Below, piece after piece: positions 1 to 38,174 of a stretch of DNA of 39,715 bases (its first letter is position 1; each line of letters opens with the position of its first letter). This DNA comes from a virus. Taxonomy: Duplodnaviria; Heunggongvirae; Uroviricota; Caudoviricetes. The translations under genes were made by a program, and so were the position numbers. The notes under the pieces were generated by a model. It worked only from the letters and a program-made list of their open reading frames with translations. It did not search any database and had not been told where the DNA came from. Location: the IMG/VR virus record IMGVR_UViG_2541047728_000019, one strand, 5' to 3'.

Positions 1-516
1 ATGAAATTTAAAAAATGTCTTCTGCCTGTGGCAATGTTAGCGTCATTCACTCTGGCAGGATGCCAGTCAAATGCTGATGATCATGCCGCCGATGTTTATC
101 AAACCGATCAACTGAATACCAAACAAGAAACTAAAACCGTTAATATTATTTCCATTCTTCCCGCAAAAGTTGCCGTAGACAACTCCCAAAATAAACGAAA
201 CGCACAAGCCTTCGGCGCGCTTATTGGTGCAGTCGCTGGCGGTGTAATCGGCCACAACGTGGGGTCTGGCAGCAATTCCGGAACGACGGCAGGTGCAGTT
301 GGCGGCGGAGCTGTTGGCGCGGCAGCGGGTTCTATGGTGAATGATAAAACCTTAGTGGAAGGTGTTTCTCTAACGTATAAGGAAGGCACCAAAGTGTATA
401 CCTCCACCCAGGTGGGTAAAGAGTGCCAGTTTACGACAGGTTTAGCCGTTGTTATTACCACGACGTATAACGAAACGCGTATTCAGCCAAATACGAAATG
501 TCCTGAAAAGAGCTAA
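1..516 (+). CDS. Lipoprotein with Gly/Ala-rich glycine-zipper segment
   Basis: Signal peptide ending in lipobox LAGC; long GxxxG-type Gly/Ala run; may be a prophage moron or host flank. Confidence 0.6.
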   Translation: MKFKKCLLPVAMLASFTLAGCQSNADDHAADVYQTDQLNTKQETKTVNIISILPAKVAVDNSQNKRNAQAFGALIGAVAGGVIGHNVGSGSNSGTTAGAVGGGAVGAAAGSMVNDKTLVEGVSLTYKEGTKVYTSTQVGKECQFTTGLAVVITTTYNETRIQPNTKCPEKS

Positions 517-531
517 TGATCAGGAGGAGTC

Positions 532-1071
532 ATGAAGAAAGTTTTTCTTTGCGCCATCTTAGCCTCCTTAAGCTATCCGGCTATCGCCTCATCATTGCAG
601 GATCAACTCTCGGCTGTCGCAGAAGCGGAACAGCAAGGTAAAAATGAAGAGCAAAGGCAGCATGACGAATGGGTCGCGGAGCGCAACAGGGAAATCCAGC
701 AAGAGAAGCAACGTCGCGCAAACGCCCAGGCCGCGGCTAATAAAAGAGCGGCAACGGCAGCGGCGAATAAGAAAGCTCGTCAGGATAAACTGGACGCCGA
801 AGCCACTGCGGACAAAAAACGCGATCAAAGTTATGAAGATGAGCTACGCAGCTTAGAGATTCAGAAACAAAAACTGGCGCTGGCGAAAGAAGAAGCCCGC
901 GTCAAGCGCGAAAACGAATTTATCGATCAGGAACTGAAGCACAAAGCTGCGCAAACCGATGTGGTGCAATCTGAAGCTGACGCAAACAGAAATATGACTG
1001 AAGGCGGTCGCGATCTGATGAAAAGCGTGGGTAAAGCAGAAGAGAACAAATCGGACAGCTGGTTTAACTAA
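532..1071 (+). CDS. Secreted charged coiled-coil protein, unknown function
   Basis: N-terminal signal peptide (MKKVFLCAILASLSYPAIASS); Ala/Lys/Glu/Arg/Gln-rich body; GGAGG Shine-Dalgarno upstream of ATG; 16 bp after previous stop. Confidence 0.55.
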   Translation: MKKVFLCAILASLSYPAIASSLQDQLSAVAEAEQQGKNEEQRQHDEWVAERNREIQQEKQRRANAQAAANKRAATAAANKKARQDKLDAEATADKKRDQSYEDELRSLEIQKQKLALAKEEARVKRENEFIDQELKHKAAQTDVVQSEADANRNMTEGGRDLMKSVGKAEENKSDSWFN

Positions 1072-3360: not shown

Positions 3361-3385
3361 CCCGCAAAATATTGCGGGCTTTTTT
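3361..3385. terminator. Hairpin plus T-run between tailspike stop and lysis cassette
   Basis: cccgcaa/ttgcggg stem then 8 T on plus strand; for the minus-strand transcript the U-tract is poor, so function is uncertain. Confidence 0.4.
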
Positions 3386-6300
3386 TTAACGTTCTTCCAG
3401 AGACTGAATCCGCTCTTTTATCTTATCCATTTCTCTGCGCTGCCATGCTGCCTCGATATAGAATAAGAGATCAGGTCTGACCCCCCATCTAGATCCTGCT
3501 GGCGTTATTTCAACGCGCTCAATGATGTCTTCCATTACCATCACTGGATTATCATCCTCATCAACAATGATGCTCCCGTCATTATCAGTCAGCGGCATTT
3601 CCCTTTGGCCAGTAATGACGTCATCATATACTGCGGGATAATCGTCATAGCAAAGAAAGGCATAGCGGCATGTTGTGCTTTCTTCTTCCATGAGTCCGTG
3701 AGAAATAAGAACATCACGAAGTTGCTGCGCGATTACACCATGATGTATCCTCGCCCCTTCTTCCCCCTTTATAGCGACAGCGTTCAGCCATTTATAAGCG
3801 ATATACCTGACGTCACCCCAGGCATCCAGCAATGCTTCGTCAGGAGAGACCGGCTCTGTCTTTAATGTTCCGTCACTGGTAACCACAGGATTGGAGCCAA
3901 GATAAACTGTCGAGAACCTGTTTCCCGGACCACCAAGAGCATTTACATTATCAAGATAAGGTTTAACATCTCCGTTCTCAAAAAGATGTTCGAGTGCGTT
4001 ATATACCGCGCGACGTGGAGTACTGCTTCTGGAACCATGCAACGTTATCATTGCACCATCTGCTGAAGACGTTGTTTCACCGCCGCTAACGATTAATCTC
4101 TGAGCGGTAACATCATCAGACGGTACTTTCTTCGCAATAATGGCGTAATTACCCTCAAGTTTGACTTCCGCGCGAACTTGTCCTGATGTACCTGCATGGA
4201 CAGTCAGTGACTGGACGGCAACATCATCTGTGAAATCAACGGGTACAGGAACCGTCCTCACGCCTGACGTCGACATAAAAGTAGGAAGCGTTCTGTTAGG
4301 AGTGGCTCCGTAGACAAAATCCCTTGAAACAAATTCTTCCTGTTTAATTTTCACCCTGAAACAATACAAATCAGCCGGGTGACCATCGTGAACATAAGGA
4401 TATTTTCTGTTGTTATCCCCTATGCTCCATGGGTTTAGAAAGTCTTCCCCACCGAAAATGTAGTACAGCCAGTTGTCTTTGATACAAACTGAACCAACAC
4501 CAACCGCAGAGTTAACTATTCCGCCCTGATAAATCTGATCAGTAACATTAACCCACTCTACATTATCCAGACTCCACTCATTGACGTTAACTCTGGTCAT
4601 AAATGTTCTTGGATAATTTCCTGCATAACGGTTATCAGGTTCTCCTCCTTCCCACTCACCAAATGCGCGCTCACTGCCAAAAATAATCAGCTCATCGCCA
4701 ACTTTGGCAAAAGGAAGGTTTGAGTGATGAACATTATTTGGGAAGCGAAGAGAATTCCATGATGTACCTAAATCAGAGCTTCTGTGCAATGAACTACCGG
4801 GTTGAGTACTTAATGTCCCCCTGGTCGTCAGATACAGAATGCCATCATAATATTTTACACATGGCTCAGATGCATTCGCCTCATATTCTACAGGTATGCG
4901 TCTGCGAACAAAGCTACCAGGAGAACCGAAAGCATCAGAGAAATAGAGTATCCCAAGCTCGCGTGGACCAATATCACCATTATGGTAGCCAACAGCAAAA
5001 CTGTTATCGCTAATCGTCGCAAAACTGTGAATCTCAGTAACAGGAGTGCTTCCGTCAACAAAAGAAGGAATAGTTCCAAGACTGGTTTTTCTCCATGGTG
5101 ACGAGTGAAATGATGTGCCAAAACTCCAGTATCTACCCTCGTTATTCTGATCCACATCCTGGGTATTTTTCGTCGTAACTGTAAAGGTATTTTTATCAAT
5201 AACAGTAGTCACCGTCATATTCCCGGTAACACCTGTAACACCAGAGTTTGAGAAGTTGACAAAATCACCAGCAAATAATCCGTGATCAGTAATGCGAATA
5301 TAAGCGACTTGCTGATTTGCTGCTTTCGTTATACCACCATAAACGCGAAGGCTGCGACTCATTGGGCGATCCCACAACTCTGCAACCTGCAGTTTATTTC
5401 CGCTCACGGTCCGCGTCTCAATTACAGCAAAAAGGCGATTTCTGACAACCCCCATACTCATGCAGTGATAGTTAACTGTGGGATAGTTTTCATGTAAATC
5501 TGTAAGCCATTCCGGCGTTGTCCAGGTCTTCCCGTCATCTCCTGAGCGAACCCATGCAACATGGAGGTTATTTACACCATGGCGGTCTCCAGCCATAAAA
5601 GGCGCATAGATGACATTGTCATATACAAACGTTTTATCCTGCGTCCAGGCGTTGTACCACGGTGTATCTGTAATTTTAAATAACTCTCCCTGGATAAAAT
5701 CTTCAGAAGCATAAAAAAGAGGTTGGCCCGGTATTCTCTCAAATAAAAAACGAGCATTTTTAAATCGACTGACATCCGGAAGAGTTGATACTTTAAAAGT
5801 AAGCCCTAATCCGTCAATTTTATAACCTGGAGATGAGGCTTCAAGGCACGCGCTTATTGCAGTGGAATCGTCATTTATACCATCACCAACAGCTCCAAAA
5901 TCTTTGGGGCTAATAGCATCACGCATTTTATCCTGGAACGTTCGGTACACAGCCCCAGAACCATACTGAATAAACCAACCAAAACCACCAACAACCCCGG
6001 AGATTGCAGCATCGACATAATTACGCATTGAGCGATTATTTACAGCGTCCTGCTCAAATGATGGATCTGCAAGGTTAGAAATTTTGTTTTGCTTTGCATC
6101 GTAATATTTTGCAAGCAAAGATGGTTTCATCAATGCACGTCTGAACCACCCAAAACATTGCTGGATCAGCATCGTCAGATAGTCAAAGGCATCTTCATGC
6201 ACCTCGGGGAAAAATTTTCCCTGATTACGAAGATCAGTCTCCTGCACCACATCAAGCACACGATCTATCGTAATTCGCCATCCAGCAGCAAGCGGCGACG

Positions 6301-6505
6301 GAAGAACAACAGAACCGCCACTATAAGTGCCCGCCCCAGTTACCGTATAACCGGTATCCAGTACTAGTTCTGTTACGTTACCGTTAAGGTCAGACACCTG
6401 AACAACCAGGTCGGATTTTTTGAAAATACGGAAGGTATACGGAAATGATGTCGTAACGCCGTTACCAGTGTATTCGTTGTGGTCAACTTCGGTTGAGACC
6501 GTCAT
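3386..6505 (-). CDS. Tailspike: N-terminal particle-binding domain, central beta-helix-type depolymerase region, C-terminal intramolecular chaperone (peptidase S74-like) domain
   Basis: 1039 aa; DFGAVGDGINDDSTAI motif typical of pectate-lyase-like beta-helix enzymes; C-terminal DEALLDAWG...YKWLNAVAIKGEEGARIHHGVIAQQ matches self-cleaving chaperone domains; GGAGA SD. Confidence 0.85.
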   Translation of the reverse strand: MTVSTEVDHNEYTGNGVTTSFPYTFRIFKKSDLVVQVSDLNGNVTELVLDTGYTVTGAGTYSGGSVVLPSPLAAGWRITIDRVLDVVQETDLRNQGKFFPEVHEDAFDYLTMLIQQCFGWFRRALMKPSLLAKYYDAKQNKISNLADPSFEQDAVNNRSMRNYVDAAISGVVGGFGWFIQYGSGAVYRTFQDKMRDAISPKDFGAVGDGINDDSTAISACLEASSPGYKIDGLGLTFKVSTLPDVSRFKNARFLFERIPGQPLFYASEDFIQGELFKITDTPWYNAWTQDKTFVYDNVIYAPFMAGDRHGVNNLHVAWVRSGDDGKTWTTPEWLTDLHENYPTVNYHCMSMGVVRNRLFAVIETRTVSGNKLQVAELWDRPMSRSLRVYGGITKAANQQVAYIRITDHGLFAGDFVNFSNSGVTGVTGNMTVTTVIDKNTFTVTTKNTQDVDQNNEGRYWSFGTSFHSSPWRKTSLGTIPSFVDGSTPVTEIHSFATISDNSFAVGYHNGDIGPRELGILYFSDAFGSPGSFVRRRIPVEYEANASEPCVKYYDGILYLTTRGTLSTQPGSSLHRSSDLGTSWNSLRFPNNVHHSNLPFAKVGDELIIFGSERAFGEWEGGEPDNRYAGNYPRTFMTRVNVNEWSLDNVEWVNVTDQIYQGGIVNSAVGVGSVCIKDNWLYYIFGGEDFLNPWSIGDNNRKYPYVHDGHPADLYCFRVKIKQEEFVSRDFVYGATPNRTLPTFMSTSGVRTVPVPVDFTDDVAVQSLTVHAGTSGQVRAEVKLEGNYAIIAKKVPSDDVTAQRLIVSGGETTSSADGAMITLHGSRSSTPRRAVYNALEHLFENGDVKPYLDNVNALGGPGNRFSTVYLGSNPVVTSDGTLKTEPVSPDEALLDAWGDVRYIAYKWLNAVAIKGEEGARIHHGVIAQQLRDVLISHGLMEEESTTCRYAFLCYDDYPAVYDDVITGQREMPLTDNDGSIIVDEDDNPVMVMEDIIERVEITPAGSRWGVRPDLLFYIEAAWQRREMDKIKERIQSLEER

Positions 6506-6567
6506 GTTAAATCTCCAGATAGTCGCAGCACCCGTTGCGCCGCATATCTGGTTATTCTATTACCTGA

Positions 6568-6964: not shown

Positions 6965-6982
6965 AGGCCGCAAGAGCGGCCT
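6965..6982. terminator. Bidirectional terminator hairpin aggccgc-aaga-gcggcct
   Basis: 7-bp GC stem between convergent genes; near-identical hairpin at 9612-9629. Confidence 0.5.
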
Positions 6983-7709
6983 ATCGTTTCGCTTTGTGCT
7001 CGTCCCAGCACGTTTTGCACCATGCCATTAAGCCGTCCGCATTTTGATTATTAGGGTAAAAGCTGGTCCGTTTTCTGCGGACATTACAAATTGGGCACCA
7101 CTTCATATGGCGTGTATTCTTTGGGCCATCGAGACACCTTGCACACCACTTAGTCAATCCATCTGGATTTTTTGACGATTTCCGGAATTTGTCATATGGA
7201 AGGTTTATTCTGCATCGCAAACACTGCTTGCGGCCACTTGAAACTCTGTTAGCTGATTCTTCTTTTGGCGGCGATACAGAAGGTATTCTTGCTGGCTCTG
7301 ATACTGCCTGAGGTGCTTTTTTAGATGACTGAGACGATATGTCATCACCAGGGAATCTTCCATGATATGCCGGACGCGTTGACACTCCAGGTGGAAGCTC
7401 AGCTGTAAACGGCTTTGGCTGAATCAGTTGCCTCTCTTTTGCTAACTCCTGCTGTTTATAATATGTCTGGATTACCGCGCTATCATAAGCAGGAGGTACG
7501 GAAATATTAGGCGCATTATCTCCCGTTTTTTGAAACTGAGTGGAGGTGTGTTCTATCACCTGTGTACGATTAATCGTTATCTCCCCATCTTCAGTCTTTA
7601 TCGTTTTGTTATGATTAACGACCGTACGATCAGAGATCTTAGTCTTGTTCTGGTTGATAACGTAAATAATCACCGCAACCACACCAACAACTACCCAGAA
7701 AACTTCCAT
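6981..7709 (-). CDS. Membrane-anchored protein with two tandem CxxC-x22-CxxC zinc-ribbon repeats
   Basis: N-terminal TM helix, Pro/Ser-rich linker, repeats CLRC...DGLTKWCARC and CPIC...DGLMAWCKTC; strong GAGGAAAGG SD; operator palindrome about 20 bp upstream. Confidence 0.6.
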   Translation of the reverse strand: MEVFWVVVGVVAVIIYVINQNKTKISDRTVVNHNKTIKTEDGEITINRTQVIEHTSTQFQKTGDNAPNISVPPAYDSAVIQTYYKQQELAKERQLIQPKPFTAELPPGVSTRPAYHGRFPGDDISSQSSKKAPQAVSEPARIPSVSPPKEESANRVSSGRKQCLRCRINLPYDKFRKSSKNPDGLTKWCARCLDGPKNTRHMKWCPICNVRRKRTSFYPNNQNADGLMAWCKTCWDEHKAKR

Positions 7710-8104: not shown

Positions 8105-8797
8105 ATGAATACCAAACCTTCCATCTTTTCCTTTGAGTCATCCTGCCAGATCCGTATGTTCATGATTGACGGAGAACCTTGGTTTGTCACCAAAGATGTG
8201 TGCAATGCTTTGAATATTGATGTTACACAAGCGAGAAAACTTGATAAAAAAGGCTGGAACAAAAAGGGGCTGTATTCAATACAGACCCCTGGTGGAATAC
8301 AAGAACTATCCATCGTTTCAGAATCAGGTCTCTACATCCTTATTCTGCGTTGCAAAGAGGCAATGACTGAGGGAACGAGAGCATTCAGATTTCTTGAATG
8401 GGTTACAGGTGAGGTTCTTCCTCAGATCCGCCGCACCGGAAGTTACATTAAAAACTCGCTCCCGCAGGAAGAACGCATAAAGATGGTTGCCGACCAGGTA
8501 GCCAACGCCACAGCATCAGCAGTGATGCAGGCAATGAAGATAGAGAACAAAACCTACAGTGCCCCACTGAAGCCCGGCTACCGCAGCCTGATTCATTCTC
8601 CGTCTGGTGTTCTCGGCCTGACGGAGCACTCACTGCTGATGAATCTGTTGAACCAGTTACAGGAAGACGGGCACGACGTATCGGGCGCGGCGGCGGAGCT
8701 GACCACCATGTTCTGCTACATCGTCGGTGTGAGCAAATGCCTGCGTGATATCCAGACTCACGCGGAGTACATCAACGACAAGGCAGGGTTCTTCTGA
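8105..8797 (+). CDS. Antirepressor, Bro-N/KilA-N N-terminal domain plus shared Ant C-terminal module
   Basis: Bro-N signature (FVTKDVCNAL...SESGLYILILR...FLEWVTGEVLPQIRRTGSY); start MNTKPS at 8105; C-terminal 77 aa near-identical to the other Ant. Confidence 0.8.
   Translation: MNTKPSIFSFESSCQIRMFMIDGEPWFVTKDVCNALNIDVTQARKLDKKGWNKKGLYSIQTPGGIQELSIVSESGLYILILRCKEAMTEGTRAFRFLEWVTGEVLPQIRRTGSYIKNSLPQEERIKMVADQVANATASAVMQAMKIENKTYSAPLKPGYRSLIHSPSGVLGLTEHSLLMNLLNQLQEDGHDVSGAAAELTTMFCYIVGVSKCLRDIQTHAEYINDKAGFF
8564..8797 (+). repeat. Left arm of a 234-bp inverted repeat (about 95 percent identical to 9689-9922)
   Basis: Codon-by-codon comparison by eye: 11 differences, 10 synonymous; encodes the shared Ant C-terminal module. 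Confidence 0.8.
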
Positions 8798-8868
8798 CGG
8801 CGGCGGCACAGGGATGTGCCTTTAAATAATTCTGTACGATTGCAGACCGGGGGGTGAATAGAGTACTA

Positions 8869-8883
8869 TTACCTTACGGGTGA
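8869..8883. promoter_or_regulatory. Operator-like palindrome TTACC-TTACG-GGTGA (one mismatch)
   Basis: Preceded by TTGCAG-N18-TACTAT, upstream of leader ORF and the 9013 gene. Confidence 0.45.
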
Positions 8884-8920
8884 TCCATAGCGATTAGGCA
8901 CCGATACAGGAGGAGCCCAC

Positions 8921-8953
8921 ATGAGAAAATTTGACGAGTACGAAGGCGTTTAA
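8921..8953 (+). other. Candidate 10-codon leader ORF (MRKFDEYEGV)
   Basis: Strong AGGAGG SD upstream; followed 20 nt later by a terminator-like hairpin. Confidence 0.3.
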
Positions 8954-8972
8954 CATTCGGATAGTTTAATGA

Positions 8973-8997
8973 CGGGGCCATTAGGCCCCGTTTTCAT
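8973..8997 (+). terminator. Terminator/attenuator-like hairpin 15 nt upstream of the 9013 start
   Basis: cggggcc-atta-ggccccg stem then TTTTCAT. Confidence 0.45.
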
Positions 8998-9012
8998 GTC
9001 TGGAGACAGTTT

Positions 9013-9552
9013 GTGTTAAGTGAAGAAATGCAATTTGCCATGGCTGTGGCTCAAATCGTAAGTGCAGTCGCGGTTTCGCTTGGCTTGTTCATAGCTATCG
9101 CTACTATTATTTATAATGTAAATACAGCGAGAAAAGTACACACTTCAGTATTCCTTGGTGAAAGCAGGTTTGATGTAGATTATAAGAAAGGCCTATCTAC
9201 TATGCGCCGCATTCACGAGTCGAACAAATCATTCCGCTCTTATATGTATCCAAGCAATGGGCAGGCTGATCTTACGGATGAAGAAAAGATAGAGAAGAGA
9301 GAAATAATTTACTGTCTAGGTTTCTACGAACGCATGGCTGTGAGCGTGAAGCGGAAAACTTATGATGAGACCATGATTAAGGAAGTATTTTACAGCTCCG
9401 TTGTAAATAACTATCAGATTGCGCTACCTCTTATACAAGCTATTAGAGAAAAAGAAAACATAAACACATATTTTAAAGAATATGAATGGTTGGCCACACG
9501 ATGGAAGGATTGTCCATTGAAGGATAAATCCCCGTGGTACAAGTTTTGGTAA
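9013..9552 (+). CDS. Membrane-anchored protein, unknown function (candidate superinfection-exclusion or abortive-infection factor)
   Basis: GTG start with GGAG SD; N-terminal TM helix then about 150-aa soluble domain; AT-rich relative to neighbours. Confidence 0.6.
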   Translation: MLSEEMQFAMAVAQIVSAVAVSLGLFIAIATIIYNVNTARKVHTSVFLGESRFDVDYKKGLSTMRRIHESNKSFRSYMYPSNGQADLTDEEKIEKREIIYCLGFYERMAVSVKRKTYDETMIKEVFYSSVVNNYQIALPLIQAIREKENINTYFKEYEWLATRWKDCPLKDKSPWYKFW

Positions 9553-9574
9553 GCCCGCGCTGCGGGCTTTTTTG
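9552..9574 (+). terminator. Rho-independent terminator after the 9013 gene
   Basis: agcccgc/gcgggct stem then T-run, directly after stop. Confidence 0.6.
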
Positions 9575-9602
9575 TGTCTGCGGATTCCCGCCCGGGTGGC
9601 GG

Positions 9603-9629: not shown

Positions 9630-9688
9630 AAGCGGCCTGTGACATGTCACGCTAGTTTCGTTTTGCACGTCCCTGTGCCGCCGTTCTG

Positions 9689-9922
9689 TCAGAAGAACCC
9701 TGCCTTGTCGTTGATGTATTCCGCGTGCGTCTGGATATCACGCAGGCATTTGCTCACACCAACGATGTAGCAGAACATGGTGGTCAGCTCCGCCGCCGCG
9801 CCCGATACATCGTGCCCGTCTTCCTGTAACTGGTTCAGCAGATTCATCAGCAGTGAGTTCTCCGTCAGGCCGAGAACACCCGACGGCGAATGAATCAGAC
9901 TGCGGTAGCCTGGCTTCAATGG
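9689..9922 (-). repeat. Right arm of the 234-bp inverted repeat
   Basis: Reverse complement aligns to 8564-8797 with about 95 percent identity. Confidence 0.8.
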
Positions 9923-10627
9923 ATAACCATAACATTTTGTCTGTGTTTTAATTGCCTCACGAAGCGCATCTAACATCTTGACTGCCACTTCATCATTCTC
10001 TGATGCAGATCCAGCAGGGAGATACTCCCCTTCAAGCGGAACCCGAGCAACAAGAGACAACGCTTCGGCAAATTGATCTTCACCAATTTCTTTGTACGAA
10101 CAGCCAAAATGAGATTTCAGTGACGACCACATGGTGATCATCGCCTTAGCCTGTTTTTCTTTTGGCAGAGACTGACCGCGACTCATGACGAGTTGTTTAA
10201 TGGCTTCCTGCTGTTCAGTTGTTATTTTACCCGGCAACGCCTTTTTAGCTTTGCGTGGGTTAACCACATGGCCTTTAGTCCAGTACTCGTAGAGCACATC
10301 GTCACACTCTTCCTGATACTGGATTACCTTGTCGCGGATTTCAGGGCGGACTTTGTTAGGGCTGATGCTGTTCAACCAAGCTGCCAATTTTCGTAAAGCC
10401 ATACAAATCATGGCTTGCACCCCACCGGCAGAAGGTATGGTGATTTCCACCATACCCTTCGAGAAGCGTTGAGAAATCTTCTTATGTTGAGATTTCCAGT
10501 CTAGCCCCATTCCCTCAACGATAGGTTTCATTGGGGTATACGGTTCGCCGTTGTGATTGACAACATAAAGCTCTGCGCCGTGGAATGGCACGTTGATAGT
10601 AGATACTGCTGTTGCTATACTCGTCAT
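9689..10627 (-). CDS. ant: Antirepressor, AntA-type N-terminal domain plus shared Ant C-terminal module
   Basis: N-terminal PFHGAELYVVNHNGEPYTPMKPIVEGMGLDW resembles AntA; downstream of Arc-like gene as in P22 immI. Confidence 0.8.
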   Translation of the reverse strand: MTSIATAVSTINVPFHGAELYVVNHNGEPYTPMKPIVEGMGLDWKSQHKKISQRFSKGMVEITIPSAGGVQAMICMALRKLAAWLNSISPNKVRPEIRDKVIQYQEECDDVLYEYWTKGHVVNPRKAKKALPGKITTEQQEAIKQLVMSRGQSLPKEKQAKAMITMWSSLKSHFGCSYKEIGEDQFAEALSLVARVPLEGEYLPAGSASENDEVAVKMLDALREAIKTQTKCYGYPLKPGYRSLIHSPSGVLGLTENSLLMNLLNQLQEDGHDVSGAAAELTTMFCYIVGVSKCLRDIQTHAEYINDKAGFF

Positions 10628-27142: not shown

Positions 27143-27219
27143 GTGGCATTAGCTCAGTTGGACAGAGCAACCGCCTTCTAAGCGGTTGGTCGCAGGTTCG
27201 AATCCTGCATGCCACGCCA
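27143..27219 (+). tRNA. tRNA-Arg (anticodon UCU, reads AGA)
   Basis: Cloverleaf folded by hand: acceptor GTGGCAT/ATGCCAC, D-arm GCTC..GAGC, anticodon stem ACCGC/GCGGT with loop CTTCTAA, T-arm GCAGG-TTCGAATC-CCTGC, 3' CCA encoded. Confidence 0.85.
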
Positions 27220-30868: not shown

Positions 30869-31148
30869 GACCTTCCTCCTTTGGCTTGTGAATTTGTATC
30901 GTCATGCCGCTTTGAGTGGTGACTACAACGACAGAACCAGGCTGAAGACTGTTAAGATTGAATGCTTCGTAAAACGAAGCCAAGGCCAGCGCTTTTTTAT
31001 TCTTTCGGTTCCACCAACGCCATCCATTGCTACAGGCTACACTGACAATCCACTGTCCACTCCTGTAAGCCATATAAAACCAGATGAGCAAAACCTGAAT
31101 GAATGCTATCCAGTCAATAATCGTATATTTCGCGAAGGAGACCATCAA
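30861..31148 (-). CDS. Hypothetical small membrane protein
   Basis: 95 aa with hydrophobic N-terminal segment. Confidence 0.45.
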   Translation of the reverse strand: MMVSFAKYTIIDWIAFIQVLLIWFYMAYRSGQWIVSVACSNGWRWWNRKNKKALALASFYEAFNLNSLQPGSVVVVTTQSGMTIQIHKPKEEGRG

Positions 31149-31861
31149 TTAACCTCCTGCGGCGGTTCCGGTAGAGGCATCCAGTACAAGGCGTTCCCTA
31201 ACCACGATAAAGTGCCGTCGCTCAACTCCACGTATTCCCCTTGTACCTGTCCTGCCATATACTCGCCGTGCTTTGAATAAATTAAAATCCAATCATCTTG
31301 AGCGGGCATTCGCTCACTACAGCTTATCCAACCATCCGGAGTTACCGGATAGTTGCCAGCCTGAACAGTAGGCATATCAGGACCTTTGCGAATCGCCCTG
31401 GCAAGATCGATTGGGTCGTCGTACAACCAGTCACCTGTTTGCGGATGATTGGCTTCTGCCAATTGTGCAGCCCACTCCAGGCCGTCTTTGTGTCCTTGCA
31501 GATAGTCCAGCGGTAACTCATCACTATTACTTACAGGTTCGGCTTCCAGTTCTGCAATGCGCTTCTCTGCAGCTTCCAGCTCAACACGCAGCTTCCCTAC
31601 CGTTAGCGCAATATCCTCGTTCTCCTGGTCGCGGCGTTTGATGTATTGCTGGTTTCTTTCCCGTTCATCCAGCAGTGCCAGCACGGTTTCTGGTCCGGTC
31701 AGAAATTTGAAGGCGTTGAGCGCATCAATATCCACACCGTAATCTTTAAGTTCCTGTTCACTTAACAAATCATCATCAACTGGCAACATTAACAGGCGAT
31801 CCATTGCCGGAATTGCACGCTCTGCCTCCTCACGCAGTGCCTGATAGTCAATCTTGCTCAC
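31145..31861 (-). CDS. Ead/Ea22-like protein with DUF551-like C-terminal domain
   Basis: Acidic coiled-coil N-half; C-terminal WISCSERMP...WILIY..HGEY pattern. Confidence 0.55.
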   Translation of the reverse strand: MSKIDYQALREEAERAIPAMDRLLMLPVDDDLLSEQELKDYGVDIDALNAFKFLTGPETVLALLDERERNQQYIKRRDQENEDIALTVGKLRVELEAAEKRIAELEAEPVSNSDELPLDYLQGHKDGLEWAAQLAEANHPQTGDWLYDDPIDLARAIRKGPDMPTVQAGNYPVTPDGWISCSERMPAQDDWILIYSKHGEYMAGQVQGEYVELSDGTLSWLGNALYWMPLPEPPQEVN

Positions 31862-32394
31862 TGGTTGCCTCCTTTGCGAAGCTGGGCAGCAAAGTCAACT
31901 AACCACTCAGTCATTTCAACCTTCCCTACCAGGTCTGAACCAGGGTGCATACAGCAATCACTCTGCGCCGCTTTGAAATCCTTATACTCATATTCTTGGG
32001 CCACCAGATTTTTTGCAGCTTCTATAGCAGCATCCACCCCCTGCGCCCGTACTTCAGCCAGGAATGCGTCGGTGGCTGGGGTGTCTGATTGCAGAGACTT
32101 TGCGCGATAGTCATTCCACCCTCTTGCATACATGGGATTAACTTGCACTCCATCTTTTACGCAATATGCCTGACCTCCACGGTTGATAACCTTGATTTCG
32201 CCCATAGCGCCAGACTTCAGCCCCGCATTCTCCACAGCCAGCGCATTAGCACGCACCAGTTGCACTTCCAGTTGCGTTGCCAAATCGCTGAGCAGCTTTG
32301 CCACACTGCGCATATCAACGGCACCACATTCTGCTTTCAGTTCCGAAGCCATCTCATGCCCGTCGGCAACTAACCCTTTGATATTACTTTCCAT
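31858..32394 (-). CDS. Hypothetical protein
   Basis: 178 aa in nin-like block. Confidence 0.5.
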   Translation of the reverse strand: MESNIKGLVADGHEMASELKAECGAVDMRSVAKLLSDLATQLEVQLVRANALAVENAGLKSGAMGEIKVINRGGQAYCVKDGVQVNPMYARGWNDYRAKSLQSDTPATDAFLAEVRAQGVDAAIEAAKNLVAQEYEYKDFKAAQSDCCMHPGSDLVGKVEMTEWLVDFAAQLRKGGNQ

Positions 32395-32455
32395 CTTTAC
32401 CCTCGCTTATCCACATAACTTATTGATTACATTGATAACTAAAAAGATCGTCGAT

Positions 32456-32803
32456 TCAGAACTCTTCGATGTTCCAGCCACCACCTGCTTTCTTTGGTTT
32501 AACCGTTACCCCGATGATTCGGAACGGATACTGATCTGCGGCGACTTTGGTTTTCACCCTGGCGTCGTCGGTCCAGAATCCCCCTTTCACTTCGTGCAGC
32601 TCCATCTCGCCGGTGGCGAGCATCACAGCAAAATCGGGCGTATAGAACGTGTTGTCAGCTAACCGCAGCTTGATACCCTCAAATCGATACCAGACGATTT
32701 CTCCTGCACGTTTACGCATCTCAAGGTGCTGGCAATACGCAGATTCTGTTTTGTTCATCTGGCCTGTTTTGAGTCGACCAAGAGCCTGTATCTGTTTTCT
32801 CAT
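32456..32803 (-). CDS. Small PD-(D/E)XK nuclease-like protein (possible junction-resolvase-like)
   Basis: YTPDF ... ELHEVKGG motif pair. Confidence 0.5.
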   Translation of the reverse strand: MRKQIQALGRLKTGQMNKTESAYCQHLEMRKRAGEIVWYRFEGIKLRLADNTFYTPDFAVMLATGEMELHEVKGGFWTDDARVKTKVAADQYPFRIIGVTVKPKKAGGGWNIEEF

Positions 32804-32806
32804 GAT

Positions 32807-32821
32807 TTACCTCTGAGGTAA
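32807..32821. promoter_or_regulatory. Operator-like palindrome TTACC-TCTGA-GGTAA next to the 32803 start codon
   Basis: Perfect dyad. Confidence 0.55.
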
Positions 32822-32826
32822 TTAAA

Positions 32827-32837
32827 AACCACATAAG
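32827..32837 (-). promoter_or_regulatory. Recurrent motif (minus strand CTTATGTGGTT) between two palindromes
   Basis: Third copy of the YATATGTGGTT family. Confidence 0.3.
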
Positions 32838-32868
32838 ACACGAAATCAATAGAGTTTAGAATATTTTG

Positions 32869-32883
32869 TTACCCAACAGGTAA
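32869..32883. promoter_or_regulatory. Operator-like palindrome TTACC-CAACA-GGTAA
   Basis: Perfect dyad downstream of the replication-operon terminator. Confidence 0.55.
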
Positions 32884-32892
32884 CTATCAAGA

Positions 32893-32915
32893 CATAAAAA
32901 AATGCGCTATCGCGC
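32893..32915 (-). terminator. Weak rho-independent terminator after the replication genes
   Basis: Short gcgc-gata-gcgc stem plus 7-nt U-run on the minus transcript. Confidence 0.4.
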
Positions 32916-32920
32916 TGGTA

Positions 32921-33697
32921 TTACTTGATAAATCCTGCCGCCTTTCCCCGCCTGTATTCCTCCATCAGCCACTGCGCCGGTGTTATTCCCCCAAGGGTGG
33001 CGGCGTTAGGCATGCACCCGAAACTTCGCCCTGGTGGATGGTAAACGTCTCTCCCTGTGTCCGGAGGCGTACTCATGGGTTCTGGCTTTGCCTGTATGCT
33101 GATCACCGGATCCGGTATCTGCTGTCCGGAAGCCACCTTTTTCGCCCAATCATCGAGCAGCCTGCGCGCGTGTTTCTCAACCTCAATCTCGCTAAGCTGG
33201 CGCTGATACATTGCACGGCGGGTATCACATACGACCCAGTACATAACCGGATGTCGCCACGGGAATCTTTCGGGACCACCAGGATATAAACTTTTTTCCT
33301 TGCTGTACCGGTGAAACTCCGCCATCACATCGTCAATGGTGACGCCAAGAACCATCTTGCTGTCTTTACACCACTTGATGAATTGCCCTGGCGACGGCCA
33401 GAACGGAGACTCACTGGCGCGGGCGTGGCGCATACCAGCGTTAACCTGTTCCATTGTAGTGATCCCATTCTCCAGAAACGCAAGCATCCATTGCTTACGG
33501 AATTCATTAAGTTTGTTCTGCTCCCTTATGGTCGAAACGCTTGCGGGAAATGCAGCCTGTAACTGGACAAATAGTTCATTGAAAATTCTAGCGACCTGCT
33601 CCTTTTTGCCATTGCTGTCACGCCGCTCTTCATGCACAGCAACACCATGCTCACGTAAGCGATCGTACTCATTGAGAAGTTCTGGAGTTGATTTCAT
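32921..33697 (-). CDS. Putative replication protein
   Basis: 258 aa downstream of DnaT-like gene in early-right operon; function by position only. Confidence 0.5.
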   Translation of the reverse strand: MKSTPELLNEYDRLREHGVAVHEERRDSNGKKEQVARIFNELFVQLQAAFPASVSTIREQNKLNEFRKQWMLAFLENGITTMEQVNAGMRHARASESPFWPSPGQFIKWCKDSKMVLGVTIDDVMAEFHRYSKEKSLYPGGPERFPWRHPVMYWVVCDTRRAMYQRQLSEIEVEKHARRLLDDWAKKVASGQQIPDPVISIQAKPEPMSTPPDTGRDVYHPPGRSFGCMPNAATLGGITPAQWLMEEYRRGKAAGFIK

Positions 33698-34499
33698 CCC
33701 ACACCCCTTCTATCCAGTCAGTGTTATTCCAGTCAAGCTCATCGCTTTTCCCGGCGTTTTTTGATTTTCCCCTGATATGATTTACGTGCCTGGCGAATTT
33801 TTGTTCCCACTGAACCTGCGTGAACACTTTGCCCTCAGCCATCCAGTAATCCCGGAATGCAGCAAGTTCAGCAGGTGTAAATTCCGGTTCCGGCAGGGCC
33901 GTTCCCCACAGCGCAGCACGCCGTCGAAAATCCGGCGACGGATGCCAGCCATCGGTCATCGGAAATTTCCCGATGGGTTCACTCAGGCCATCCAGAAATT
34001 CAGGTTCAGCCACCTGCAACGGCATACCGTTCGCTTCACTGGTCGGAGCACCCTCGCGCACGTGCGCTATGTGTGGGGTTTTATATATATCTTCCTCTTC
34101 CTCTTCCTCTGGTAACTCCTTTTGTAACGCTGTTGGCGTTACTTTTTGCGTTACTCGTTTTCGATGCTCTGCCACTCTTCTATTCGTAAGTGCACGTTTT
34201 TTCGATGATTCTCCATTGTGTCGCTCAAAGTTTGGAAGAATTAGTTTGCCGTCATGATAAGCAAGCCATCCGACGCTAATGAGGGCGTCAGCAAATCCTG
34301 TAATAAAAGCGAGTCTATCAAGTACTCCTTTTGTAACGCTGCCAGCGTTACCGTCTATTGTTTGCTGGTCAGCCCATGCCCATATACGAACCAGCTTTCC
34401 AAGAACAGCATCTGGATCAATACCCAGAATTTCTGCTATCTGAAAAATTTCAGGTTTATCAGGAGTGATAACTTCAACCTTAATCCAGCTGCTTGCCAT
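33669..34499 (-). CDS. Replication/primosome-like protein (DnaT-like C-terminal region, tentative)
   Basis: Acidic EEEEEED linker; C-terminal W/F/P-rich segment; start MASSW at 34499. Confidence 0.5.
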   Translation of the reverse strand: MASSWIKVEVITPDKPEIFQIAEILGIDPDAVLGKLVRIWAWADQQTIDGNAGSVTKGVLDRLAFITGFADALISVGWLAYHDGKLILPNFERHNGESSKKRALTNRRVAEHRKRVTQKVTPTALQKELPEEEEEEDIYKTPHIAHVREGAPTSEANGMPLQVAEPEFLDGLSEPIGKFPMTDGWHPSPDFRRRAALWGTALPEPEFTPAELAAFRDYWMAEGKVFTQVQWEQKFARHVNHIRGKSKNAGKSDELDWNNTDWIEGVWDEINSRTSQ

Positions 34500-34674
34500 A
34501 GGTTTCCCCTCTTGCACTCTTTAGTGCACAAGCAAATTCATTACGATGGCGGTTGGCGCTATTCATTGCACATTCAACACATGTTCCGTTCAGAACATAC
34601 CTTTCAGAGAGATGGCCGTGACGGCACCGCTTTCCTGTGAAATAGCGATTTAACCCGGCTTTTGCGGCCTCCAT
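34480..34674 (-). CDS. Small zinc-ribbon protein
   Basis: CRHGH ... CVEC pattern; start ambiguous (ATG 34674 or TTG 34692). Confidence 0.45.
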   Translation of the reverse strand: MEAAKAGLNRYFTGKRCRHGHLSERYVLNGTCVECAMNSANRHRNEFACALKSARGETYGKQLD

Positions 34675-34840
34675 TCTGGTTACTATCTTCAATTTTTCCG
34701 CCCCTTTTTGTTATTGATATTGGCTATTTTGCACAATTGGAAAATTTGATCAACCAGATTTGGTTTTTTATTACCTTTGAGGTACGAATAGATATGAAAA
34801 GACCGCCGGGTGGCGGTCTACAGAGGGTTGTAGCTGGATA

Positions 34841-37236: not shown

Positions 37237-38174
37237 GCAACGACATCGCAAACATCAACGCACCAGTAGACACAGCAATCGCTGGAACTGCTGCAACTAT
37301 TTTCAGCCCAGACGGCTTGAACCAACTGATGAAATTCGCCGAGGTAATGGCGCAAAGCCGCGTAACGGTACCGGCGCACCTCGCCGGGAAACCAGCTGAT
37401 TGCATGGCCGTGGCAATGCAGGCTGCGCAGTGGGGAATGAACCCGTTTGCCGTGGCTCAGAAAACCCATGTTGTGAACGGCACGCTAGGTTATGAAGCCC
37501 AATTAGTAAACGCAGTTATCTCAACGATGTCGCCAACAAAAGATCGCATCAACTACGAGTGGTTCGGGCCGTGGGAACGCGTGATCGGTAAGTTTGTTGA
37601 GAAAACATCCAAAAACGGCAATCCATATATCGCACCAGGCTGGACTCTAAAAGACGAAGAAGGCTGCGGTGTTCGCGTATGGGCAACCATGAAGGGCGAG
37701 GATCAACCTCGAGTGCTTGAGTTAATGCTGTCTCAAGCACAGGTAAGAAACTCCACACTTTGGGCCAGTGATCCGAAACAACAACTCGCATACCTTGCGA
37801 CAAAACGCTGGTCTCGCCTGCACTGTCCTGACGTAATCATGGGCGTCTACACCCCAGACGAATTACAGGAAACGGCACCGCGCGTTGAGCGAGACATTAC
37901 TCCGCAAACGACCACTGCTGCGGGAATGAACAGTCTGATCAACGCTAAACCAGCGAAAAAGCCTGATGAGCAAACGCGTAAATCGGACAGCCGTGATCCA
38001 GAAGAAATGCTGATGGCCTTTACCAGCGCAGCGATGAATTACAGCACTGTCTCCGAACTGGATAAGGCTTACAAATACATTGCACAAAAACTTTCAGATG
38101 ATGACGAACTGCTGGCAAAAGCCACCGACGTTTACAGCGTTCGTCGGGAAGAATTAAACGAAACATCTATGTAA
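37233..38174 (+). CDS. recT: RecT-family single-strand annealing protein
   Basis: Partner position after the exonuclease; start MSNDIAN at 37233; RecT call by family resemblance. Confidence 0.7.
   Translation: MSNDIANINAPVDTAIAGTAATIFSPDGLNQLMKFAEVMAQSRVTVPAHLAGKPADCMAVAMQAAQWGMNPFAVAQKTHVVNGTLGYEAQLVNAVISTMSPTKDRINYEWFGPWERVIGKFVEKTSKNGNPYIAPGWTLKDEEGCGVRVWATMKGEDQPRVLELMLSQAQVRNSTLWASDPKQQLAYLATKRWSRLHCPDVIMGVYTPDELQETAPRVERDITPQTTTAAGMNSLINAKPAKKPDEQTRKSDSRDPEEMLMAFTSAAMNYSTVSELDKAYKYIAQKLSDDDELLAKATDVYSVRREELNETSM

Follow-up and report, generated by a model that had tools for sequence, protein, structure and literature searches.

A Predicted GH58 Endosialidase Tailspike with an Epsilon15-Type Anchor in a Prophage of a Presumed K1-Type Escherichia coli

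We found that a gene carried by a 39,715-nt stretch of viral DNA (IMG/VR record IMGVR_UViG_2541047728_000019; the whole stretch is called the window below) very probably encodes the tailspike of an epsilon15-like temperate podophage lodged in an Escherichia coli K1-type chromosome. In this protein an anchor, a GH58 endo-alpha-2,8-sialidase, and a self-cleaving chaperone would be joined in one chain (table 1). What was observed directly is how the domains are arranged, which residues are conserved, how nearly identical the protein is to characterized ones, and the genomic context; activity, trimer formation, and autoproteolysis are predicted from these observations. A tailspike of this kind is already known and described, and the present one is ordinary. 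An identical protein is listed in RefSeq as WP_021524409.1, where it is annotated as an endosialidase and occurs in prophages of E. coli K1, and a gene that is 100% identical in nucleotide sequence is present in E. coli O2:K1:H7 APEC E18055, annotated there as an endosialidase beta-propeller protein.

Table 1. Features of the tailspike gene and its flanks, with positions counted along the window
Feature	Position	Strand	Residues (aa)	Remarks and source
Complete tailspike gene	3386..6505 (stop codon included)	minus	1-1039	1039 aa, 115.7 kDa precursor; ORF list
Shine-Dalgarno-like GGAG	6513..6516	minus		8 nt 5' of the tailspike ATG; read from the sequence
Particle-binding anchor, epsilon15-like (Uetakevirus) tailspike type	5924..6505	minus	1 to ~194 (~195)	
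DFGAVGDGINDD motif (DFGAxGDGxxDD)	5867..5902	minus	202-213	Junction of anchor and catalytic module; regex match, single copy
Endosialidase N-terminal extension	5693..5893	minus	205-271	Pfam PF12218, 109.6 bits, E 6e-32
Catalytic six-bladed beta-propeller (GH58)	4343..5692	minus	272-721	Pfam PF12217, 773.5 bits, E 3.7e-233
Beta-barrel domain inserted in propeller	5111..5359	minus	383-465	Pfam PF12195, 154.8 bits, E 6e-46
Stalk (endosialidase tailspike domain)	3878..4342	minus	722-876	Pfam PF12219, 261.3 bits
C-terminal intramolecular chaperone / peptidase S74 domain	3389..3877	minus	877-1039	18.7 kDa; Pfam PF13884
GC-rich hairpin	3361..3378	.		Directly past the tailspike stop codon; terminator scan and sequence
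Recombination block common to P22-like K1 prophage CUS-3	3415..5807	minus	~234-1030	2394 nt, 99.4% nucleotide identity; megablast, local blastn

Gene and Catalytic Module

The reading frame opens with an ATG codon. A sigma-70 promoter scan gave weak consensus matches within and around the gene and none that was convincing upstream of its start. The hairpin past the stop codon has its T-run on the plus-strand side; on the strand of the tailspike, an A-run comes before the hairpin.

Sequence comparison identified the catalytic part as a GH58 endosialidase, with a beta-propeller into which a beta-barrel is inserted, followed by a stalk. The propeller profile PF12217 was covered from position 1 to 367 of 367 (cutoff 24 bits), and the extension, the barrel insert, and the stalk stood in the canonical endosialidase order, with PF12218, PF12195, and PF12219 all above their cutoffs. 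The scan of the protein against NCBIfam matched 0 families. Among solved structures, the K1F endosialidase (PDB 1v0e and 3gvl) matched aa 205-876 end to end (E = 0), the endosialidase of phi92 (4hiz) was also a strong match (E 2e-271), and crystal structures at 54-70% identity span aa 205-1038. The active-site residues H309, R515, E547, R562, and R613 were identical, five out of five, to H350, R549, E581, R596, and R647 of K1F, which have been named catalytic and mutation-intolerant (PMC12632334). The second-shell residues Q330, D331, H527, S528, K585, and N699 were conserved too, and Asp boxes were located in the propeller at aa 321 and 576. The initial annotation had predicted a polysaccharide-degrading, receptor-binding tailspike, and the endosialidase domains recognized by Pfam and in the PDB lend sequence support to that prediction.

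Stalk, Chaperone Domain, and Predicted Self-Cleavage

T876, the last residue of the stalk, is the predicted C-terminus of the mature protein, and the aligned chain of 1v0e stops at the same threonine. Past this point, the chaperone domain that had been proposed earlier was confirmed: Peptidase_S74 (PF13884) was found at aa 877-937 (41.4 bits vs a cutoff of 22), the chaperone construct of endoNF (3gw6) matched aa 757-1038 (E 1.3e-93), and the phi29-type neck appendage 3gud matched the chaperone domain (E 6e-8). The domain is 163 aa long, not about 130 as first estimated. The PDB search of the tailspike returned no T5 tail-fibre chain at E <= 0.01.

The Ser-Lys dyad is conserved, with S877 and K882 corresponding to S911 and K916 of endoNF, and residue mapping placed R863 of the stalk at R897 of K1F; both the dyad and the role of R897 in autocleavage have been described (PMC8326128). 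The mat_peptide boundary between the mature protein and the C-terminal domain in the K1F GenBank record is 910|911. The conserved dyad and stalk arginine support the earlier prediction that the C-terminus would be removed after folding, and by analogy with endoNF the cleavage is predicted at T876|S877, giving products of 97.1 and 18.7 kDa. The stalk of endoNF contacts polysialic acid through residues that we take to be R837, S848, and Q853; two of these three positions were conserved, and the one corresponding to Q853 is a methionine both here and in CUS-3.

On this architecture, the tailspike may work as follows. The epsilon15-type anchor (aa 1 to ~194) would fix the trimer to the tail, and the second module (aa 205-876), made of the extension, the propeller with its barrel insert, and the stalk, would act as the GH58 endo-alpha-2,8-sialidase. 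Three chaperone domains (aa 877-1039 of each chain) would drive trimerization and folding of the stalk, as in K1F endoNF. Ser877, Lys882, and Arg863 would then cut between T876 and S877, so that the 18.7 kDa fragment is freed from a mature spike of 97 kDa. On the virion, the spike would bind the polysialic-acid K1 capsule and depolymerize it, which would let the phage reach the outer membrane.

Anchor and Nearest Relatives

The anchor was 68-72% identical to the tailspikes of Salmonella E15-type phages, phiV10, SPC32N, and TL-2011b (tblastn; aa 1 to ~165). It also matched PHROG tail families and the N-termini of Dpo31/Dpo36 (PDB 28lx/8ck1, E 7e-36). Homology to the epsilon15 group and an epsilon15-like genome together place it in the Uetakevirus type. 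The tailspikes of epsilon15, phiV10, and SPC32N resemble the present one over these N-terminal ~165 aa and occupy the same place in the genome, 5' of the holin-endolysin cassette, but for receptor binding they are annotated with beta-helix, O-antigen-directed modules in place of an endosialidase. In other prophages, the same anchor is fused to GH28-related and other modules.

The closest phage relative was ORF7 of vB_EcoP_ZX5 (MW722083), with 99.0% nucleotide and 99.3% amino acid identity. It shares the length of 1039 aa, the Uetakevirus genome context, and the three-module layout, which its authors have already described (PMC9782041), and it differs by 7 substitutions, none of them on a catalytic or cleavage residue. 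The same paper describes the N-terminus of ORF7 as "T7-like" (PMC9782041). We could not reproduce this: at the sequence level, BLASTP of K1F gp17 aa 1-245 against the N-terminus of the tailspike gave E 0.43, and Pfam showed no N-terminal match to the T7-type tail-fibre domain at E <= 0.1.

Two further relatives share the enzyme and differ in the anchor. SiaK1 of CUS-3 (CP000711), a P22-like prophage of E. coli K1 RS218, was ~99.5% identical from aa 234 to ~1025, a stretch that takes in the propeller and its barrel, the stalk, and the larger part of the chaperone domain, with 4 substitutions, again sparing every catalytic and cleavage residue; its inferred substrate is the same. The N-terminus of CUS-3 is a P22-type head-binding domain, whereas here it is the unrelated epsilon15-type anchor; the two also diverge over the final 14 residues and in the DNA downstream of the gene. 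Beside the tailspike, CUS-3 carries the phase-variable O-acetyltransferase gene neuO, whereas holin genes lie there in the window. The structural and mechanistic reference is endoNF of K1F (gp17; 1v0e, 3gvl, 3gw6), in which the domains follow each other as they do here, starting with the N-terminal extension and ending with the chaperone domain. Identity to endoNF is 70% for the propeller, 56% for the stalk, and 54% for the chaperone domain, and all catalytic and cleavage residues are conserved. However, the anchor of endoNF is T7-type, the present protein has an insertion of 7 residues (aa 483-489) in the propeller and one of 8 residues in the chaperone domain, and K1F is lytic whereas the phage here is temperate.

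Prophage Context and Module Exchange

The window is an epsilon15-like (Uetakevirus) prophage adjoining yfgH/yfgI. Most of it was collinear with ZX5, of which the first 25.7 kb were compared (identity mostly 96-99%), and with the prophage adjoining yfgI in the O2:K1:H7 genome. Compared with ZX5, the prophage is a mosaic variant in which several segments, from the early region and the morons, failed to align. The catalytic-plus-chaperone block was very probably exchanged with CUS-3 by recombination, and any direction of exchange would be conjectural. With this tailspike, the epsilon15-like lineage joins the carriers of the endosialidase cassette, namely T7-like, SP6-like, and P22-like phages, a siphovirus, and phi92-like phages. 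Sharing of this cassette is textbook exchange of tailspike modules and leaves the current understanding unchanged.

Substrate and Alternative Explanations

The substrate would be alpha-2,8-polysialic acid, the K1 capsule, because aa 234-1030 are ~99.5% identical to the experimentally active endosialidase of CUS-3, for which the GenBank record of siaK1 (CP000711) cites direct-assay evidence. The host range of the relatives points the same way. An O87:H52:K1 strain supports plaque formation by ZX5, whose tailspike is 99.3% identical, and the named carriers include serotyped K1 strains, e.g., O7:K1 and the O2:K1:H7 genome with the identical gene. The statement of the initial annotation that the substrate cannot be inferred was therefore wrong. 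The value of the assignment is practical only: it would mark the prophage as specific for the K1 capsule, a specificity that bears on neonatal-meningitis, ExPEC, and APEC lineages and on how endosialidases are used as reagents or therapeutics.

An enzyme that prefers another polymer, such as K92 with its alternating alpha-2,8/2,9 linkages or O-acetylated polysialic acid, seems highly improbable. Such a preference would agree with the strong match to the phi92 endosialidase and with the lack of an acyltransferase gene beside the tailspike, unlike in CUS-3, but it is opposed by the near-identity of the catalytic block to the endosialidase of CUS-3 from the K1 strain RS218, by the serotyped K1 carriers, and by the K1 host of ZX5. 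It is also very unlikely that the gene is a relic of a decayed prophage or encodes a catalytically dead, binding-only endosialidase that neither cleaves the capsule nor processes itself. The gene does lie in a prophage, and binding-only mutants of endosialidase have been reported (Jakobsson et al. 2007). However, the reading frame is not truncated, its start and ribosome-binding site are intact, the catalytic, second-shell, and cleavage residues are all conserved, and ZX5, with its nearly identical tailspike, is infectious. Moreover, a copy covering 80% or more of the gene is present in 72 complete E. coli genomes; among the matches listed, these copies are full-length and at least 99% identical.

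The initial annotation had assigned the catalytic part to a pectate-lyase-like, right-handed beta-helix glycanase of unspecified substrate, announced by the motif DFGAxGDGxxDD in the central region of the protein. The motif is indeed present, once, but at the N-terminal margin of the catalytic module and not centrally. A weak match to the pectate-lyase-like family PF12708 (E 0.031) accompanied it, and the short stretch that holds it gave weak matches to the N-terminal beginnings of beta-helix proteins of known structure, led by the GH55 glucanase 5m5z (E 2e-6) and followed by AlgE epimerases, phi29 gp12, and the Sf6 tailspike. In addition, the motif is followed by GH28-related or beta-helix modules in sister prophages that have this anchor too. 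Against these points, the Pfam check for Pectate_lyase_3 that had been suggested gave 14.5 bits vs a cutoff of 27 over only 21 residues (aa 201-221, profile positions 5-25 of 213), and we found no above-threshold match that spanned the coils of a beta-helix. Furthermore, aa 205-876 aligned without a break to the sequence of the endoNF crystal structure and are fully covered by endosialidase domains in Pfam and the PDB. The motif itself belongs to every endosialidase: the counterpart of DFGAVGDGINDD is GWGAKGDGVTDD in the K1F enzyme and GWGAIGDGVHDD in that of CUS-3, and tblastn with aa 190-275 gave only endosialidases among its best matches. The beta-helix glycanase was rejected at the sequence level on the Pfam and PDB results, and we consider it scarcely credible.

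The motif of the endosialidase tailspike sits exactly where tailspikes with the same anchor split into unrelated folds, a GH28-related beta-helix in some and an endosialidase beta-propeller in others. Its weak matches also fall on the first coil of many beta-helix enzymes of known structure. A rather doubtful suggestion is that the motif serves as a conserved joint at which whole catalytic modules are swapped by homologous recombination, or else that the N-terminal extension of endosialidases is left over from an ancestral spike of beta-helix fold into which a sialidase propeller was grafted. If either were true, the prophage pair of APEC O18 would be a live example of module exchange. In that strain, a CUS-3-type and a Uetakevirus-type prophage are co-resident in one chromosome, and their endosialidase blocks are 99.75% identical.

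Endosialidase Domains in the Centre of the Tailspike

The tailspike was encoded by a single long ORF of 1039 aa, with an ATG start and GGAG 8 nt upstream (ORF list and sequence reading). Four Pfam endosialidase domains were found in its centre in the canonical order (see table). In PDB sequence searches, the structures 1v0e and 3gvl of endoNF, the endosialidase gp17 of phage K1F, gave an unbroken alignment over aa 205-876 (E = 0), and the phi92 endosialidase 4hiz was also matched (E 2e-271). Residues were mapped by aligning the tailspike with K1F gp17, SiaK1 of the P22-like K1 prophage CUS-3, and ORF7, the tailspike of the Uetakevirus ZX5 (Escherichia phage vB_EcoP_ZX5). H350, R549, E581, R596, and R647 of K1F, which are catalytic and intolerant of mutation in a deep mutational scan (PMC12632334), corresponded to H309, R515, E547, R562, and R613, all conserved, as were the second-shell residues named in the same study. 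Moreover, two sialidase Asp boxes, SGDDGKTW and SSDLGTSW, were present.

The initial annotation had combined a pectate-lyase-like beta-helix centre, recognized by a DFGAxGDGxxDD-type motif, with a C-terminal chaperone. Both sequence features exist and the general depolymerase role was right, but the beta-helix fold was wrong. PF12708 was rejected as an explanation of the centre: its match was confined to residues 201-221, and the score of 14.5 bits fell below the cutoff of 27.

Features of the tailspike and the prophage (nucleotide positions refer to the window unless a locus is named)
Feature	Position	Strand	Remark
Tailspike ORF	3386-6505	-	
Motif	aa 202-213; 5867-5902	-	DFGAVGDGINDD
N-terminal extension	aa 205-271		Pfam endosialidase domain
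Catalytic beta-propeller	aa 272-721		Pfam, 773.5 bits, E 3.7e-233
Beta-barrel inserted in propeller	aa 383-465		Pfam
Stalk	aa 722-876		Pfam
Asp boxes	aa 321; aa 576		
Peptidase_S74	aa 877-937		Pfam, 41.4 bits (cutoff 22)
CUS-3-type spike, APEC O18	L009 1576-4521		981 aa, beside acyltransferase
Uetakevirus-type spike, APEC O18	L010 1501-4620		1039 aa
yfgH	1-516		host gene
yfgI	532-1071		host gene
242-aa ORF	6981-7709	-	
Inverted repeat, 270 nt	8529-8798 / 9688-9957		
tRNA-Arg (anticodon TCT)	27143-27219	+	
GC-rich hairpin	3361-3378		T-run on + strand
Segments with poor or no alignment to both the E18055 prophage and ZX5	1279-1800; 8876-9577; 30879-34748; 37516-37795		

The Motif and the N-Terminal Anchor

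The motif occurred once in the tailspike, and the same place was occupied by GWGAKGDGVTDD in K1F and GWGAIGDGVHDD in CUS-3. With aa 190-275, the best 40 of 152 phage records were endosialidase tailspikes or unannotated counterparts in K1-type phages, including K1E, K1-5, K1A, phi92, CUS-3, and phAPEC8. The motif is part of the endosialidase N-terminal extension. The beta-helix association was understandable, because about 25 residues of the motif region showed weak similarity to the N-terminal start, or first coil, of numerous right-handed beta-helix proteins with solved structures, most strongly the GH55 glucanase 5m5z (E 2e-6); AlgE epimerases, phi29 gp12, the Sf6 tailspike, and others gave E values of 0.004 to 1. 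Sister prophages with a near-identical anchor carried GH28-related or other modules after the motif. In a comparison of the window with loci L006, L007, and L008, tailspikes whose anchors were more than 93% identical diverged at the motif into an endosialidase, a GH28-related protein, or another tail-fibre module. The motif may thus serve as a joint for recombination, or it may be left over from an ancestral protein.

The anchor, an epsilon15-type particle-binding module (aa 1 to about 165-173), shared 68-72% identity with tailspikes of Salmonella phage VB_ST_E15, phiV10, SPC32N, and TL-2011b, and was more faintly similar to proteins of podophages of Pseudomonas, Xanthomonas, and Pelagibacter. 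Dpo31/Dpo36 was a solved homologue of this module (E 7e-36, PDB sequence search). The CUS-3 head-binding domain was unrelated to it, and BLASTP detected no similarity to the T7-type N-terminus of K1F gp17.

Substrate and Exchange of the Endosialidase Cassette

The substrate had been considered impossible to infer, which proved wrong. Over window 3415-5807 (aa about 234-1030), the DNA shared 99.4% identity with siaK1 from the CUS-3 prophage in E. coli K1 RS218, whose GenBank record gives an endosialidase tailspike with direct-assay evidence; only four differences separated the two proteins over aa 234-1025. The whole gene was matched at 100% in E. coli O2:K1:H7 APEC E18055. Among 5426 complete E. 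coli genomes, 72 contained the gene at a coverage of 80% or more; the best 25 of these copies were full-length with at least 99.0% identity, and several carriers were named K1, APEC, or ExPEC. The ZX5 protein was 99.3% identical, and ZX5 forms both plaques and lysogens on an O87:H52:K1 strain, with the 3' end of guaA as its integration site. The near-identity to CUS-3, the K1 carriers, and the K1 host of ZX5 together identify alpha-2,8-polysialic acid as the predicted substrate.

The three-domain layout of ZX5 ORF7 has been published (PMC9782041), the identical protein is named [quoted passage not shown] in RefSeq, and endosialidase cassette exchange among T7-like K1F, SP6-like K1E/K1-5, and P22-like CUS-3 is the standard example of tailspike modularity in reviews (PMC5380687). 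Therefore, the finding is already known. Two endosialidase tailspike genes lay about 167 kb apart on the APEC O18 chromosome (NZ_CP006830.1), and four further genomes (CE10, EC69, 2022E04-002, and E15) appeared in both search lists. The two APEC O18 spikes had a common 2394-nt block, 99.75% identical, and the pair fits recent exchange between co-resident prophages, in either direction.

The Chaperone Domain and a Proposed Mechanism

The C-terminal chaperone domain was confirmed, although it spans 163 aa and not about 130. In PDB sequence searches, 3gw6, the crystallized chaperone construct of K1F endoNF, matched aa 757-1038 (E 1.3e-93), and the neck appendage protein 3gud also matched the C-terminus (E 6e-8). 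Cleavage of endoNF requires the Ser911-Lys916 dyad and also involves Arg897, a residue of the triple beta-helix (PMC8326128); the K1F GenBank record gives residues 2-910 as the mature protein and 911-1064 as the released domain. In the alignment, these correspond to R863, T876|S877, and K882, and the sequence around the predicted cleavage point reads NPVVT|SDGTLKTEP. We infer a cleavage predicted to yield 97.1 kDa and 18.7 kDa products from a 115.7 kDa precursor.

By homology, and following the endoNF literature, the epsilon15-type N-terminus would fix the trimeric spike to the tail, the chaperone domains would start stalk folding and then be shed, and propeller and stalk would bind and cut the K1 capsule, giving the virion access to the cell surface.

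Prophage Context

The window contained, in order, yfgH, yfgI, a lysis cassette (a DUF2514 protein, a GH19 endolysin, and two holins), the tailspike, an antirepressor/Arc/YafO-toxin region, tail, head, and packaging genes, and early genes, ending just short of the integrase. The host flank (1-1280) was 96.6% identical to APEC E18055, and this flank, together with the integrase just past the other end, agrees with the integration near guaA reported for ZX5. Apart from several mosaic gaps, the window was collinear with the prophage of E18055 and, across the 25.7 kb compared, with ZX5. The segments that aligned poorly or not at all mark the prophage as a mosaic variant at its lysis end and in the moron and early regions.

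The 242-aa ORF just upstream of the tailspike had a hydrophobic N-terminus, two CxxC...CxxC units close to the C-terminus, and a hairpin after its stop codon; its sole family match was sub-threshold (Stc1, 21.5 bits, cutoff 24.8). The arms of the inverted repeat, 91% complementary and 889 nt apart, lay inside two oppositely oriented ORFs, whose E18055 counterparts are annotated BRO-N/antirepressor. The tRNA-Arg gene was located within the prophage, with the terminase region on one side and the portal region on the other. The GC-rich hairpin directly followed the tailspike stop codon. Given a T-run on the + strand, it looks like a terminator of oncoming transcription or a weak terminator acting in both directions.
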